A stretch of 64,000 nt of DNA. Source: Candidatus Poribacteria bacterium (GTDB lineage: Bacteria > Poribacteria > WGA-4E > PCPOR2b). How positions within the stretch are numbered: the stretch's first letter is position 1; each line of letters starts with the position of its first letter. Positions 25,488 to 55,752 of the stretch are shown here, piece by piece. Location of the stretch: positions 2,976,001-3,040,000 of the forward strand of contig OZ220744.1 in assembly GCA_965116925.1 (NCBI GenBank). The letters run 5' to 3'. Both the position numbers and the translations under genes were made by a program. The notes below the pieces were generated by a model. The model had not been told where the DNA came from and ran no database searches. It saw only the letters and a list, made by a program, of their open reading frames with translations.

Positions 25488-25707
25488 TATCGTGAATTCA
25501 AAAAATAAAGAAACACTTGCGCTCCCCGGTAGGTGCGGTTTGATGAAGTTTAAGTATTTAAATCGGTAATCCCTATTTTCCTCGAAACATACGGTAGGCG
25601 CGGTGGTAAACCGCGCCGGTGTCGCTAGCAAATTACCGAACTGTTTTTTTTATCTTCATGTAACCACACCGGCTTGGCGTGTCCCGTTAATTCTAAAATC
25701 TACTATA
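25488..25707 (+). mobile_element. MITE family A copy interrupted by a family B insertion
   Basis: A ends intact; 220 bp = 102 (empty A) + 117 (B) + 1. Confidence 0.85.
25543..25659 (+). mobile_element. MITE family B (117 bp)
   Basis: ATGAAG...CTTCAT ends, subterminal TCGGTAAT/ATTACCGA at positions 21-28 from each end; flanked G/G. Confidence 0.88.
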
Positions 25708-25751
25708 AAATAGTTCAAATTGTGTTTTAAAGAGATAAGGAGGGAGTTGAA

Positions 25752-26561
25752 ATGAAAAAAGTTTTATTATCACTATTCACCCTCGTATTCGCCAGCGTTA
25801 TGGTGTGTCTCTTAGTGTCCCCGACCGCTACGGCGAAAATCCTTTTTGAAGACAACTTCAAAAACGCAGAAAAGTCCAAAAAAAATTGGGTGTTTGCCGC
25901 AGGAGATTGGAAAGTTCAGGGCGGTAAACTGACGCAAGGAGCGGTGGTAGACCGCACAATGGCATACATGTCAGATGCCGCTTGGCCAGAAGAATATGAT
26001 GCCAAGGAGACTGCGCTGACGCAGTATATTTTCGAGGTGACTGTAAAGAAACTCAGAGGCGAGAATGGTGCCTTGATCTTCTGGCGTATCCGAGATGATA
26101 TGAAAGTGCAGGTCGGCAGGGAGTGTGGCGGCGGTTTTAACAGTTCATTCTGTTTAGGCGACGCCGGCGCAGAGGGACGCCTCGAAGATATAGGCAAAGG
26201 TCGCATTAAGCTCTGGTGGGATCTTGGTCGTGAGGGCAAAACGTCGGTTCTAGTGAGAGACATTAATGGACTTGCCAAAGACAGAAATGGCACAGATTCA
26301 AAACACAAACTCACGAAAAACAAAGAGCATCGCATCAGAATTGAAAATGATGCTATACTTCTTAAGATGTTTTTTGACGAGGAACTAGTCTGGGAAGGCA
26401 AGGAAATCAATGGTGCTAATAAGGGGGGCAGGATTGCTCTCGGCACCCATGCGACATCTGTTGAATTTTCTGACTTTGTTATCACTGATCTTAAGGGACA
26501 AGGTGTTGAACCCGGCGGCAAAATAACAACCACTTGGGGTTCGCTAAAAACTGGCAGATAA
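25752..26561 (+). CDS. Secreted concanavalin/DUF1080-like protein with C-terminal WGxxK tail
   Basis: Signal peptide (ATA), ILFEDNF, GGRIALGT...VEFSDF, tail GVEPGGKITTTWGSLKTGR. Confidence 0.75.
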   Translation: MKKVLLSLFTLVFASVMVCLLVSPTATAKILFEDNFKNAEKSKKNWVFAAGDWKVQGGKLTQGAVVDRTMAYMSDAAWPEEYDAKETALTQYIFEVTVKKLRGENGALIFWRIRDDMKVQVGRECGGGFNSSFCLGDAGAEGRLEDIGKGRIKLWWDLGREGKTSVLVRDINGLAKDRNGTDSKHKLTKNKEHRIRIENDAILLKMFFDEELVWEGKEINGANKGGRIALGTHATSVEFSDFVITDLKGQGVEPGGKITTTWGSLKTGR

Positions 26562-26606
26562 ATCTATTTCATTGCATTTGGTCGTTTATCTCTAGAAGGG
26601 AGGGAT

Positions 26607-27368
26607 ATGAAGAAGGTATTATCAATTCCATCTAATTTTGTAGGGGCGTGCCTCGTTGCGCTAATCCTACTGGCTTCTCCTGCTACGGCGCAGGTCCTGT
26701 TTGAAGATAATTTTTCAAAGCCGAACCGTACCGCGGAGAAATGGTCATTTCTGCAAGGCGCGTGGGACGTTCAGAACGGAGCACTCCAACAAGGTCAGGC
26801 GGATGGACGCACTATCGCTGTCATTTCGGATGATTTCTGGGATGATACGTGGAACGAATATATCTTTGAAGTGACCGCAAGAAAATTAAGGGGCAGTAAT
26901 GGGGTTCGCATCTTTTGGCGGATCAAAGATGATTTGCAGCCCGGTCCCGGCAGAGACGACGCCCGGTCATTTACGCTTGGTGGTCCCGTTAAGGGGCGGC
27001 TTGCTGACGAAAAATCCCGTATCAAGTTTTGGTGGGAGATCGGTTGGAAGAACAGTGAGTCGTTTGTTATTCGGGATGTTAGAGGTATTACGGACATTAA
27101 AAAAGGGACCGAGACAAAACACAAGCTAGGAAGAGATGATCTGCATGTCAAAATTTTGAATCAAGGTCTCTTCCTCCAACTGTTCCTTAATGACGAATTA
27201 ATCTTTGAGGGAAAGGATATAAACGGTAGTAAAGGAGGGCGTGTCGGCGTAGGTACAGAGGGCACGACTGCTGTGTTTGACAATGTTTTTGTGACGGGTC
27301 TCAAGGGACGATCTGTTGAGCCAGATGGTAAGTTAACGACCTCCTGGGGTTTGGTAAAAACCCGTTGA
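26607..27368 (+). CDS. Secreted concanavalin/DUF1080-like protein, tandem paralog, with C-terminal WGxxK tail
   Basis: Signal peptide (ATA), VLFEDNF, YIFEVTARKLRG shared with the upstream gene, tail SVEPDGKLTTSWGLVKTR. Confidence 0.75.
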   Translation: MKKVLSIPSNFVGACLVALILLASPATAQVLFEDNFSKPNRTAEKWSFLQGAWDVQNGALQQGQADGRTIAVISDDFWDDTWNEYIFEVTARKLRGSNGVRIFWRIKDDLQPGPGRDDARSFTLGGPVKGRLADEKSRIKFWWEIGWKNSESFVIRDVRGITDIKKGTETKHKLGRDDLHVKILNQGLFLQLFLNDELIFEGKDINGSKGGRVGVGTEGTTAVFDNVFVTGLKGRSVEPDGKLTTSWGLVKTR

Positions 27369-27417
27369 TAAATCTGTTCTTTCGCATTCAATCGTTTATA
27401 TTCAAAGGATGTGTCGT

Positions 27418-27455
27418 AAAGCCCCCGCCTTTTGGTGTGGGGCTTTCTTCTTTCT
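27418..27455 (+). terminator. Rho-independent terminator
   Basis: AAAGCCCC...GGGGCTTT stem followed by CTTCTTT. Confidence 0.6.
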
Positions 27456-53629: not shown

Positions 53630-53932
53630 CATGCCCTCTGAACCTGAGGGGTTGAAAAACCTTTAGATCCACGATTTCAACGTTCTTTGAATTTGCAATA
53701 GCGAAATATCAACCTGCTTGCGAAAAAAATCGTTGAAAATTAATGCAGGGTATGATATATTCATAGAGAAGTTATGTAGAATATGAATCTGGCGGGTGCC
53801 TATCTTGCTGGAAGGCACACAATTTATGGTGCCTATACATCAATAGATTGGTATCTTGTCATTACTTTTGGCGTGGCTTACAGGTTTCCAAAGTTTGCTA
53901 CGAAACACACTTAAAAATAAGGAGTATTAACA

Positions 53933-54298
53933 ATGTCGAAATATCAAGTGGGCTTAATCGCTCTTTTAATCGCTTGTGTCGCCTTCTTGGGGATGGACAG
54001 CTGTCAGGATCTAGTGACACCAAAACCGGAACCCGACATGCCGGCACCTGATATGCCGGAACCTGATATGCCGGAACCCGATATGCCGGAACCTGATATG
54101 CCGGAACCCGATATGCCGGAACCCGATATGCCGGAACCCGATATGCCGGAACCTGACATGCCGGAACCTGATATGCCGGAACCTGATATGCCGGAACCCG
54201 ATATGCCGGAACCTGACATGCCGGAACCTGACATGCCGGAACCCGACATGCCAGCGGAAGGTGAAGGCGATGACGACGACGATGATGACAGTCAATAG
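53933..54298 (+). CDS. Small putative lipoprotein made of (PEPDM)x15
   Basis: AAGGAG RBS and signal peptide homologous to the 52583 gene; 15 pentapeptide units; poly-Asp tail. Confidence 0.75.
   Translation: MSKYQVGLIALLIACVAFLGMDSCQDLVTPKPEPDMPAPDMPEPDMPEPDMPEPDMPEPDMPEPDMPEPDMPEPDMPEPDMPEPDMPEPDMPEPDMPEPDMPEPDMPAEGEGDDDDDDDSQ
54026..54250 (+). repeat. 15 x 15-bp coding tandem repeat CCGGAACCYGAYATG
   Basis: Directly visible; variation almost only at synonymous third positions of the + frame. Confidence 0.95.
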
Positions 54299-54455
54299 CA
54301 CAGCCTGAAAAGCCAAATACCAATCAATGTCTAACACTATGTTTGGCTCAATGAGTGAACACTGGGTATTTTGGCTAATCTTGTCGATGCAAGAATCTCA
54401 TACGCTAGCACGCGAGGGGTGAATTGCGATACCCCTCGCTTTAGCGTGTGGGAGT

Positions 54456-55583
54456 ATGTCAACATCTATGCCAACTGTTAAACTTGAAAATCTCACCAAG
54501 CGTTTCGATGACATCATCGCGCTTGACGGGGTCAATCTCGATATCCACAATCAGGAATTCTTCGTCCTGCTCGGTCAGACCGGAGCAGGCAAAACAACTA
54601 CCTTGCGCTGTATCGCCGGATTGGACCTACCTGAAAACGGCGCAATCTACCTCGATAATCAACAGATTAACCACCTCACTCCCGCCGAACGGGATGTCGC
54701 CTTCGTGTTTCAGGCGCATATCCTGTATCCCCATCTAACCGTCTACGAAAATATGGCATTTCCGCTACATCCGCGCGGTCTATCGGAGAACGAGATCTCT
54801 GACCGCGTCACGGATATTGCGTCAATGCTGCACATCGAGCATCTTCTGCAACGTAAACCGAACCAACTCAGTGGTGGCGAAACGCAACGGGTCGGACTCG
54901 GTCGGGCGATGGTGCGGCGACCTCAACTCTTCCTGATGGACGAACCGATCTCCAATCTCGACGCCAAACTCCGCACGGAGATGCGGGCAGAGATTAAGTG
55001 GCGGCAGCGTCAACTGGAAACCACGACGTTATACGTTACCCATGATCAGATCGAGGCGATGTCAATGGCGGACCGCGTTGCTGTGCTAGAAGCAGGGCGG
55101 GTTCAACAGGTCGGCACACCGACGGAGATATACGACCATCCGGCGAATCTGTTCGTCGCAGGTTTCATCGGCAATCCGAGCATGAACCTAATCCCCTGTC
55201 AATTCACTACTTCTGGGGAGAGGAACTACCTGGATCTGGTTGGGGGGCATCGGATCCCAGTCAAGGACGAAAAGATTGCCCACACCTTAACCGCGTCCGG
55301 GAGAAATCGGAATTTGATCCTTGGGGTGCATCCGGAAGATCTACTCATCAGTGCTGAACGTTCCCCAGAAAATATCTCCGTTGAAGTTTACAGCTTTGAA
55401 CCCCTCGGTGCGGAAACAATTGTCGATGTAACTCTTGGGAGAGATGGGACGGGTGATGATATTATCTTAAAGTCCAGAGTTGGGATGACGTTTGATGTTC
55501 GTGTTGGGGGTACATTGTGGATGACCTGTGTGCCTGAGCGAATCCACGTCTTTGACGGGGACACAGGCGAGGCAATCTGCTAA
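54456..55583 (+). CDS. Sugar ABC transporter ATP-binding protein (MalK-like)
   Basis: GQTGAGKT, LSGGE, LMDEP.SNLDAKLR, YVTHDQ. Confidence 0.95.
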   Translation: MSTSMPTVKLENLTKRFDDIIALDGVNLDIHNQEFFVLLGQTGAGKTTTLRCIAGLDLPENGAIYLDNQQINHLTPAERDVAFVFQAHILYPHLTVYENMAFPLHPRGLSENEISDRVTDIASMLHIEHLLQRKPNQLSGGETQRVGLGRAMVRRPQLFLMDEPISNLDAKLRTEMRAEIKWRQRQLETTTLYVTHDQIEAMSMADRVAVLEAGRVQQVGTPTEIYDHPANLFVAGFIGNPSMNLIPCQFTTSGERNYLDLVGGHRIPVKDEKIAHTLTASGRNRNLILGVHPEDLLISAERSPENISVEVYSFEPLGAETIVDVTLGRDGTGDDIILKSRVGMTFDVRVGGTLWMTCVPERIHVFDGDTGEAIC

Positions 55584-55635
55584 TTTAGCACATGCTGTAA
55601 TCATCGGGCAATCTGACACATGTAGCGCAAACTGT

Positions 55636-55752
55636 ATGAGGTTTCAGAAAATACTTCGGTAATTCTATATTTTCCCCCAGGCCCGGTAGGTGCGGTTTCC
55701 AACCGCACCGGACATCGCCCGGAAATTACCGAATTAATAAATTCATCTTCAT
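55636..55752 (+). mobile_element. MITE family B, divergent copy (117 bp)
   Basis: ATGAGG...CTTCAT, TCGGTAAT/ATTACCGA subterminal repeats; flanked T/T inside the GCAAACTGT/TAGTTTGC hairpin of a D copy. Confidence 0.82.

Follow-up and report, generated by a model that had tools for sequence, protein, structure and literature searches.

Short mobile elements at the centers of REP hairpins in a Candidatus Poribacteria genome leave target duplications that vary with the loop

How does one short element come to lie repeatedly in the loops of hairpins, and what sets the length of the duplication that it leaves there? The question is raised by four copies of a 117-bp MITE in the window analyzed here, a stretch of 64,000 nucleotides from contig OZ220744.1. 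The host genome is Poribacteria-like, and relatives are Candidatus Poribacteria. All four copies are on the forward strand (25543..25659, 49370..49486, 51791..51907 and 55636..55752), have ATGA ends, and contain T[CT]GGTAAT at positions 21-28 from either end. The flanking bases are G/G, T/T, C/C and T/T, respectively. On these points, and on the 118 bp that separates filled sites from empty neighbors, the preliminary description of the window was borne out.

Each copy splits a REP. The first, of the main subfamily and with 28-bp imperfect terminal inverted repeats, duplicated a G in the 3-base loop (TGT) of a GTAG-tagged REP (25529..25670, + strand). This REP forms the center of a TA-ended family-A element that begins at 25488 and is 207 bp long, compared to 89 bp for empty family-A copies. 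The right arm of its hairpin (at 25660) is GTAACCACACC, which differs by a single mismatch from the palindrome previously quoted for this site. The second copy duplicated a T in the loop (GTT) of a GTAC-tagged REP (49356..49496, +), and the tandem units here (49285-49351-49535) measure 66 and then 184 bp. The fourth copy, of the second subfamily, also duplicated a T in a GTT loop, that of a GTAG-tagged REP (55622..55762, +). A close strain is without this copy: its run X1 contig passes from window position 55634 directly into 55753, so that this allele is empty and shorter by 118 bp. The comparison uses the contig, since joints from single reads were dominated by repeats. The third copy lies in the 4-base loop (TC^CA) of a GTAG-tagged REP with even symmetry (51777..51917, +) and has a 0-bp duplication. 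Its host family contains ATTTTCCAAAATCG 53 times and the shorter form once, and both C's are present at the orthologous empty sites in three other genomes (G005, G014, G018). A 1-bp duplication had been claimed for all four copies; it holds for three, and the concession that the site at 51791 was also compatible with no duplication proved to be the correct reading. The four hairpins had also been called unrelated. In fact all have a tag, GTAG or GTAC, whose distance from the junction is exactly 10 bases, and the hosts of the second and fourth copies belong to one common arm cluster. Rfam gave no match in 49200-55900. All four copies carry, at an identical position, a GTAG-tagged REP hairpin of their own (49421..49444, +, in the second copy), which is a target for further copies.

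We found 95 intact copies in the genome, non-coding and 98-127 bp long, including a 115-bp subfamily with a mean difference of 1.7 bases. They are MITEs in the usual sense: short, non-coding, numerous, and with ends in common with an autonomous element. Empty alleles in run X1, G005, G014 and G018 indicate recent mobility. The same base is present on both flanks of 76 copies, whereas 20,000 permutations averaged 26.5 and never exceeded 44, and TA/TA flanks were found at none of the 95. Seven or 8 of 8 pairs form about the duplicated base at 83 of the 95, so the copies do not lie mostly outside palindromes; this level of pairing occurs at 0.07% of random positions and at 1.2% of non-ORF YY-N3-RR positions, the strictest control. 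When the axis was moved by 1 or 2, no copy reached this level. A good hairpin is absent at 12 copies. Rebuilt empty sites are present elsewhere for 64. Of the 19 copies with unlike flanks, 18 are in the host family that the MITE itself carries. The inner tag is present in 94/95 copies, and an inner hairpin with 7-8 pairs in 82/95 (95/98 in relatives); nested copies, inside the inner hairpin of other copies, occur at further places in the genome. MITE sites in relatives behave similarly, with the same flanking base at 83/98 (chance 25), 7-8 pairs at 64/98, and TA/TA at none.

The targets are mostly GTAG-tagged REPs, for which PMC3733652 gives a definition of a GTAG tag, a 6-13-bp stem and a 2-3-base loop. 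Most targets, among them all four window sites, and the inner cargo fit this definition and are present in many copies. The tag is exactly 10 bases from the junction at 66/95 sites, nearby at 8 and absent at 21, and is on the left-end side 49 times versus 16 on the opposite side. The 147 well-paired sites fall into 21 arm clusters that include untagged and single-copy hairpins; one of the latter, C1:929987, has an insertion with a 1-bp duplication and an empty ortholog in G005. The earlier proposal of selection by structure rather than sequence is thus right about self-complementarity. Structure alone is not sufficient, since hairpins closed by a 5' G are avoided: the loop-closing base is a pyrimidine in 288/294 half-sites and G in one, compared to 361 G-closed hairpins among the 779 available with 3-base loops. 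No insertions were found in three G-closed 3-base families (103, 140 and 49 copies) or in three even families (88, 151 and 154 copies). Junctions are paired at offset 1 in 10/95 copies and at offset 2 in 93/95, indicating 3-base loops. As single strands, the target hairpins have energies of -5 to -9.9 kcal/mol. Cumulative GC skew of the genome gave no usable replichore map.

The duplication is not the product of a fixed 1-nt stagger, as had been proposed. Empty sites document duplications of 0, +1, -1 and +2 that follow loop length; in most lineages the duplication is 4 minus the length of the spacer. Usually each end is two bases from the stem, so that a 3-base loop gives +1 and a 4-base loop gives 0. 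The +1 outcome is supported by orthologues at C1:6197564 (3/3 that retain the REP) and C1:929987 (1/1). In G029, REPs with TCCT loops (60, versus 4 three-base matches) are filled as TC^CT at 5/5 sites, and a TGT-loop family in the same genome has 9 TG^GT and 2 TG^T. In a TAAAT-loop family of G058, two loop bases are retained at 28/29 junctions (-1). Five paired sites are TA^AT where near-identical empty paralogues have TAAAT, and no empty TAT or TAAT loops were found in this family; paralogues served as empty sites because, for three G058 sites, the repeats are absent at the orthologous places in other species. The same family in G044 retains three loop bases at 17/19 junctions (+1), and G029, G052 and G054 have a mixture of two and three. 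On 5-base loops, the rule is therefore lineage-dependent. An off-target site within a gene (L047) has, by homology, a 2-bp AT duplication (+2), and 0-bp slips on 3-base loops were found at 3/95 copies. Several other readings were set aside. The CAGGTT family is not a set of 4-base, 0-bp sites, as its orthologues have 3-base loops (+1), and shorter ends combined with a 3-bp duplication of TNA type do not apply, as 3-bp repeats occur at 0/95. Three further sites were dropped because their orthologues are too variable: C1:4904154, which had been read as a loss from a 6-base loop, C1:1421130, and 2957354, where the length fits +1 in 3/5.

The search for an autonomous element with matching ends, suggested in the preliminary description, yielded a likely partner. 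The same genome contains a 1241-bp IS630-type element with 28-bp terminal repeats (24/28 identical) and one 384-codon ORF (transposase at C1:4122282). MITE ends are identical to its ends at 20-27/28 positions. Only two matches were found by tblastn with the transposase against the genome, and both IS copies are in the inner hairpin of MITEs. The MITEs are likely moved by this transposase in trans, a view that rests on the common ends and common target behavior. The element resembles IS630/Tc1/mariner elements (IS630, ISY100, Mos1) in its size (IS630 elements being about 1.0-1.4 kb), single transposase gene and terminal repeats, and in its protein, which has paired N-terminal HTH models and DDE_3 (PF13358) and scores 161 bits against the NCBIfam IS630 profile NF033545 (cut-off 100). 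In a fold search, the predicted structure gave Mos1 as the top match (E 3e-7), with low TM-scores and a model pLDDT of 69. It has no IS110 domain, and with true terminal repeats the element does not belong to IS110/IS1111. It differs from the canonical family in three respects. The canonical spacing is DD34/35E; here the triad (D191, D273, E334) has 60 residues between D273 and E334 (DD60E), with a 26-residue insert. There is no TA target or TA duplication at the MITE sites (0/95 and 0/98; among 48 insert-bearing autonomous loci scored by their flanks, 2 have TA on both sides), and the target sets a duplication of -1 to +2. We have not filed it as a canonical IS630 member, but as a protein it works like one.

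Other autonomous copies have the same base on both flanks in OZ242381 (10/10) and G047 (14/15), the G047 targets having mostly only 5-6 contiguous pairs. Outside Poribacteria, hairpins are present at only 5/26 sites of non-sister loci, which are mostly insert-bearing. One locus (L250) is in a hairpin and does not have the insert, a single counterexample to the insert as a necessary targeting module; in a transposase tree made by a quick method, the insert is one change (support 74). There are 248 clusters of wider relatives at E 1e-30, and the nearest Atlas clusters are mostly Chloroflexota among the 19 with a record. Plasmid searches gave 26-28% relatives or nothing, and viral contigs gave no matches.

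A sister group of elements has the spacing of 35 and flanks that look TA-duplicating. At the three sites that could be tested, however, insertion into CTATAG was blunt: at L172, 7/7 orthologues align gap-free only with nothing removed, and for L173 and L182 there are matching empty sites that read CCTATAGG. These comparisons reject a canonical TA duplication at the three sites. Usable empty sites were found for 3/13 genome sites; a fourth (L183) agrees loosely, and nine have none. At metagenome sister sites, a hairpin at 7 pairs is present in 0/17, and a fixed sequence is cut; ORF-continuity and tblastx comparisons there were uninformative on duplication. Because the sister group uses a fixed sequence and no hairpin, registration at two bases needs no cruciform. 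As the sister group shows, TA on both sides of an element does not prove that TA was duplicated, so the annotated ends of elements in this subgroup may be wrong.

We consider it reasonably probable that the MITEs are moved by an IS630-type transposase that takes its register, strand by strand, from the hairpins of a target opened into a cruciform-like form. The transposase would capture a short inverted repeat in this form, acting alone in targeting, and would attach the two ends of the element, each on its own strand, at a distance of about two bases from the stem. If the two active sites register separately, each on its own half-site, the stagger would float. The arms may pair within each strand during capture, presumably stabilized by the protein because stems of 5-9 bp would rarely extrude unaided; the 26-residue insert may help to hold the stem. 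Excision may be cut-and-paste, by analogy with ISY100. The Mos1 target is bent by about 147 degrees with its central TA unpaired (PMC5481204), and such a target is a plausible starting point for an opened center. The hairpin habit could descend from a sister-like enzyme that read CT half-sites and cut CTN^NAG blunt. More tentatively, and at somewhat less than even chances, the ATGAA-ended, widespread IS630-related subgroup may have left the TA rule, with one branch cutting CTN^NAG blunt and the other able to capture, in the form of a four-way junction, nearly every stem-loop that a pyrimidine closes. This second branch would position both ends at a two-base distance from the stem, and the fold of the target rather than the geometry of the enzyme would set the duplication (+2 to -1).

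The best of the alternatives, though unlikely, gives a part to a host protein with affinity for REP hairpins (a RAYT, or else a topoisomerase or nucleoid protein). This protein would open the site or make it accessible, leaving to the transposase no more than the register on the YY half-sites. Short stems do not readily extrude unaided, the position and sidedness of the tag fit such a protein, and the genome has five Y1 (RAYT-like) genes, two of which (C1:328972 and 701269) are flanked by the most-targeted REP family, with one such REP filled. Against this, the 21 untagged sites, untagged families and a single-copy hairpin are targeted, whereas the three abundant G-closed families never are, even though at least two of these flank a Y1 gene and have a GTAG tag. 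In addition, the specificity of IS1397 and ISKpn1 is set by the transposase itself, according to PMC1525189. It is still less probable that insertion is into a hairpin formed while the DNA is transiently single-stranded, at a fork or transcription bubble, with the ends joined successively, each to its own strand's loop, rather than together in one cruciform. This would explain the floating stagger, the 5-base-loop deletions and the 0-bp slips, and in vitro many of the joints that ISY100 forms involve one end only (PMC2170065), but at most sites here neither end is more than one base away from the dyad, a pattern that points to concerted joining. We regard as very improbable a fixed-stagger cut followed by trimming or filling of the loop by host repair, or 4-base loops as excision footprints with every event +1. 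Many 4-base loops do have a doubled center (TCCT, TCCA), and unlike flanks show later remodeling; however, the empty sites orthologous to 51791 have the 4-base loop in three species, the change from TAAAT to TA^AT removes a base, as no footprint would, and a sister blunt site lies within a gene, where orthologues fix the length. Finally, loose insertion with survival only in harmless intergenic palindromes, or palindromes formed after insertion, would fit the finding that none of the 95 copies interrupts an ORF of at least 150 codons, but is almost certainly wrong given the exact register, the 1.2% of matched positions with hairpins, and the rebuilt and orthologous empty sites.

Our literature search found no description that matches this system. 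Correia elements and RUP are TA-flanked; the MITEs here are in hairpin loops and have a REP inside. Both resemble these MITEs in being short, non-coding and dependent on an IS630-type transposase for their movement (PMC2817692). ISY100 duplicated TA in 34/39 insertions, and TA/A flanks in 3/39 (PMC2170065) are a 1-bp outcome from an ordinary family member. The IS described in PMC1525189 as targeting REPs are IS1397, ISKpn1 and ISPsy8 (IS3), IS621, ISPpu9/10, ISPa11 and ISRm19 (IS110), and ISRm22 (IS4), of which ISPsy8 and ISRm22 are similarly inserted at the REP symmetry axis. Each is described with a single conserved REP consensus and with repeats whose length is fixed (3, 6, 2 or 0 bp), in contrast to the 21 arm clusters targeted by one enzyme family here; the families listed in that article are IS3, IS110, IS4, IS256 and IS5, and IS630 is not mentioned in it. 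The Spy elements, with DDE, terminal inverted repeats, no duplication and insertion at the center of a 6-bp palindrome (AAA^TTT; PMC4122938), resemble the sister CTA^TAG sites, but are eukaryotic and IS5/PIF-related, and their target is a fixed sequence that involves no hairpin. REPs serve here as target and cargo and do not drive the movement; RAYTs belong to the HUH enzymes, and the ends of the MITE are of DDE type. IS1397 reportedly has a 3- or 4-bp duplication in the loop.

A DDE family is usually taken to have one characteristic duplication length, which reflects how far apart its two active sites lie. Here it varies with the target loop inside one genome (+1 and 0 in G029), which is hard to obtain from an intact double helix and makes possible a direct test of structure-based capture with one small enzyme and designed hairpins. 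Landing in REP loops would spare genes, and with a REP hairpin in nearly every MITE each insertion would add a target; because the MITEs insert into REPs and also contain one, they disperse and rearrange these repeats. If our reading is true, the genomes would also bear witness to the folding of 20-bp REPs inside cells. On the more tentative, wider reading, the enzyme would be a DDE transposase able to recognize DNA secondary structure unaided; it would report naturally on short cruciforms in vivo, and as an integrase it could be directed to a site through the design of a hairpin.

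There were 97 full-length matches to the MITE in the 6.47-Mb genome (blastn), 95 of them with intact ATG...CAT ends; the two matches with damaged ends were excluded from every count. The four copies in the window (25543, 49370, 51791 and 55636) were as the preliminary description had given them. The intact copies were 117 bp (n = 68), 115 bp (n = 17), 116 bp (n = 8), 98 bp (n = 1) or 127 bp (n = 1) in size, and 47 more end-like matches were nested, truncated or autonomous copies, or chance. The flanking base was identical on both sides of 76 of the 95 copies, compared to a permutation mean of 26.5 and a maximum of 44 in 20,000, so that the match proposed from the window copies holds genome-wide beyond chance. 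Two-bp flanking repeats were found at 4/95 copies, and neither TA/TA flanks nor 3-bp repeats at any of the 95. Empty sites rebuilt by removing one base were present elsewhere in the genome for 64 copies, those with nothing removed for nine, and those with two or three bases removed for none.

Unlike flanking bases were found at 19 of the 95 copies, 18 of which were in the host family that the MITE carries inside; in other host families the bases were alike at 42 of 43 sites. The unlike flanks likely come from exchange between copies, together with resolution of nested copies. Copies with two like halves in two related genomes (G007 and G008) would be instances of such exchange. Autonomous copies at four loci there (L018 and L041 in G007; L042 and L062 in G008) lie between like hairpin halves with T/A flanks, an arrangement that could have arisen if copies had swapped flanks or undergone inversion with one another.

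Most of the sites themselves were hairpins. With the shared flanking base as axis, seven or eight of the eight pairs at offsets 2-9 were present in 83/95 sites. This level was reached by 0.07% of random positions, by 0.19% of non-ORF positions and by 1.2% in the strictest control, which took those non-ORF positions where the preferred YY-N3-RR context is present; the proposed hairpin symmetry was thereby borne out. Because offset 1 was paired in just 10/95 sites, the usual target loop is three bases. A GTAG-type tag was located exactly 10 bases from the junction at all four window sites and 66/95 sites genome-wide, was nearby in 8/95 and was absent from 21/95; the targets correspond to REPs as defined in PMC3733652. 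The main target REP family adjoins two closely similar RAYT-like Y1 genes (contig C1, 328972 and 701269; loci L069 and L068), and one of these REPs is MITE-filled. The 117-bp MITE landed most often in the central GTAG REP of family A, a ~100-bp element whose ends are TATAGT...ACTATA and which starts at 10528, 21797, 25488, 34195, 37170 and 58677 in the window. Both orientations of the REP loop with respect to the tag exist in this genome (TTC 40, GAA 4; TCC 15, GGA 4, inside MITEs), which hints at recombination between arms.

The earlier proposal that the target is chosen by structure and not by sequence was upheld in part. Of 193 sites drawn from this genome and 29 relatives, 147 were well paired; these fell into 21 arm clusters, and a single-copy hairpin at C1:929987 had been hit by the MITE, its empty ortholog giving a duplication of one base (+1). 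However, selection is not blind to sequence: among 294 half-sites the loop was closed by C or T in 288 and by G in one, whereas G closes 361 of the 779 available perfect 3-base hairpins, and three G-closed families (103, 140 and 49 copies) had no MITE insertion. Repeated families carry extra weight in these counts, whose entries cannot be treated as independent events.

A search for a long element with MITE ends, as had been suggested, recovered two 1241-bp elements (C1:1430426-1431666 and C1:4122211-4123451), each with one 384-codon ORF. The transposase matches the IS630 model (161 bits; cut-off 100) and has HTH and DDE_3 domains; a structure model of moderate confidence (pLDDT 69) best matched Mos1. 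Sixty residues separate D273 from E334, a spacing due to a 26-residue Pro/Lys/Trp insert. We infer that this transposase moves the MITE in trans. Its named relatives are from Ca. Poribacteria, and the MITE end pattern was present in 30 of 60 related genomes. Each of the two 1241-bp copies is embedded in a MITE's inner hairpin, at a depth of three layers in one case, and an inner hairpin was present in 95/98 MITEs of relatives. The nested stacks (C1:4122104-4123516 and 1430374-1431719) are IS in MITE in MITE in genomic hairpin; one-and-a-half copies of 169-171 bp occur elsewhere. Inner REP hairpins differ between independent MITE lineages (G058, G029 and G042; L092, L125 and L073), some with 4-base loops.

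The fixed 1-nt stagger of the preliminary description did not survive, as duplications of +1, 0, -1 and +2 were found across loop lengths. Three-base loops gave +1 at window sites 55636 (a close-strain contig, run X1, is 118 bp shorter), 49370 and 25543, and at C1:6197564 and C1:929987. The 4-base loop at 51791 gave 0, from three orthologues. In the relative G029, loops of the GCGGTT family are TCCT (four-base matches 60, three-base 4, copies inside MITEs included) and its filled sites read TC^CT in 5/5; in the TGT-loop family of that genome, filled sites were nine TG^GT and two TG^T. Five-base loops gave -1 in the AATGCC family of G058, which retains two loop bases at 28/29 junctions. Its five paired sites were TA^AT, its empty paralogues, alike over 50 bases on each side, have TAAAT, and none of its empties had TAT or TAAT loops (the seven short-loop empties were all of other sequence). 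A single off-target copy inside a gene (G047) duplicated AT, giving +2 on a 2-base spacer. The common thread is that the element end leaves two bases on each side. Counter to this rule, three of the 95 sites in this genome gave 0 on a 3-base loop, G029, G052 and G054 were mixed on 5-base loops, and G044 retains three bases of such loops at 17/19 junctions (+1), as if a T.T mismatch were counted as stem.

The sister clade (support 99 in a quick tree) has related ATGAA...TTCAT ends, the same subterminal motif and a 35-residue spacing (loci L172-L186 in G044, G067, G071 and G091; L217-L262 from metagenomes). Its flanks were CTA^TAG at 13/13 genome sites; in metagenomes, C then T occupied -3 and -2 in 36/36 half-sites. 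Hairpins were found in neither set. Such flanks mimic a canonical TA duplication, but this was ruled out at the three testable sites: L172, in a WD40 gene, aligned without gaps to 7/7 orthologues only if nothing was removed, and for L173 and L182 the match was to empty CCTATAGG sites. Insertion by the sister is therefore blunt, at CTN^NAG. A spacer of four bases and no duplication obey the arithmetic of the MITE loop rule, and the element boundary is thereby fixed at ATG...CAT. Two-base registration by itself needs no cruciform, as the sister shows. Non-sister loci outside Poribacteria, mostly insert-bearing, had CTA^TAG in 0/26 and full hairpins in 5/26; many other flanks there resemble half-repeats of unlike origin, a pattern that may reflect mixing in short-read contigs. 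L250 lacks the insert, yet is located in a hairpin.

The stagger is variable and the distance from each cut to the nearest stem pair is not, indicating that the active sites register locally and that the centre is not rigid duplex; Mos1 is described as bending and unpairing its TA centre (PMC5481204). Since arms of unrelated sequence must complement each other, the simplest reading is pairing within each strand and a cruciform-like target. The arms would pair in a form stabilized by protein, and each active site would register on its nearest stem. We consider such a protein-stabilized cruciform-like target probable. A host REP-binding protein behind the hairpin targeting seems unlikely, and sequential attack on single-stranded hairpins still less likely.

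Other window features were a TnpB/IS605 OrfB-type gene (40181-41311, + strand; PF01385, PF07282) and, within an ABC sugar-transport cluster, a gene for a protein with two cytochrome P460 domains (52583-53629, + strand). The start of the latter resembles that of ORF 53933-54298, which contains a tandem 15-bp unit in ~15 or more copies (53981-54297). ORF 22092-23111 has 99-nt coding repeats (22558-23052), which by eye we take to be HEAT-repeat-like.

ISY100 and IS630 are described as duplicating TA, with TA and A at 3/39 ISY100 insertions (PMC2170065). This TA/TA duplication belongs to canonical IS630 elements, and the MITE/1241-bp family differs in lacking it. The REP-targeting elements given in the main article of PMC1525189 are from IS3, IS110, IS4, IS256 and IS5, IS630 not being among them; Spy is presented as a DDE element with no duplication (PMC4122938). 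Our literature search found no IS630 element targeting hairpin loops or with a 1-bp or loop-dependent duplication, though without ISfinder this does not establish absence from print. Insertion into hairpin loops is real, well supported at the level of sequence, and conserved across an order.
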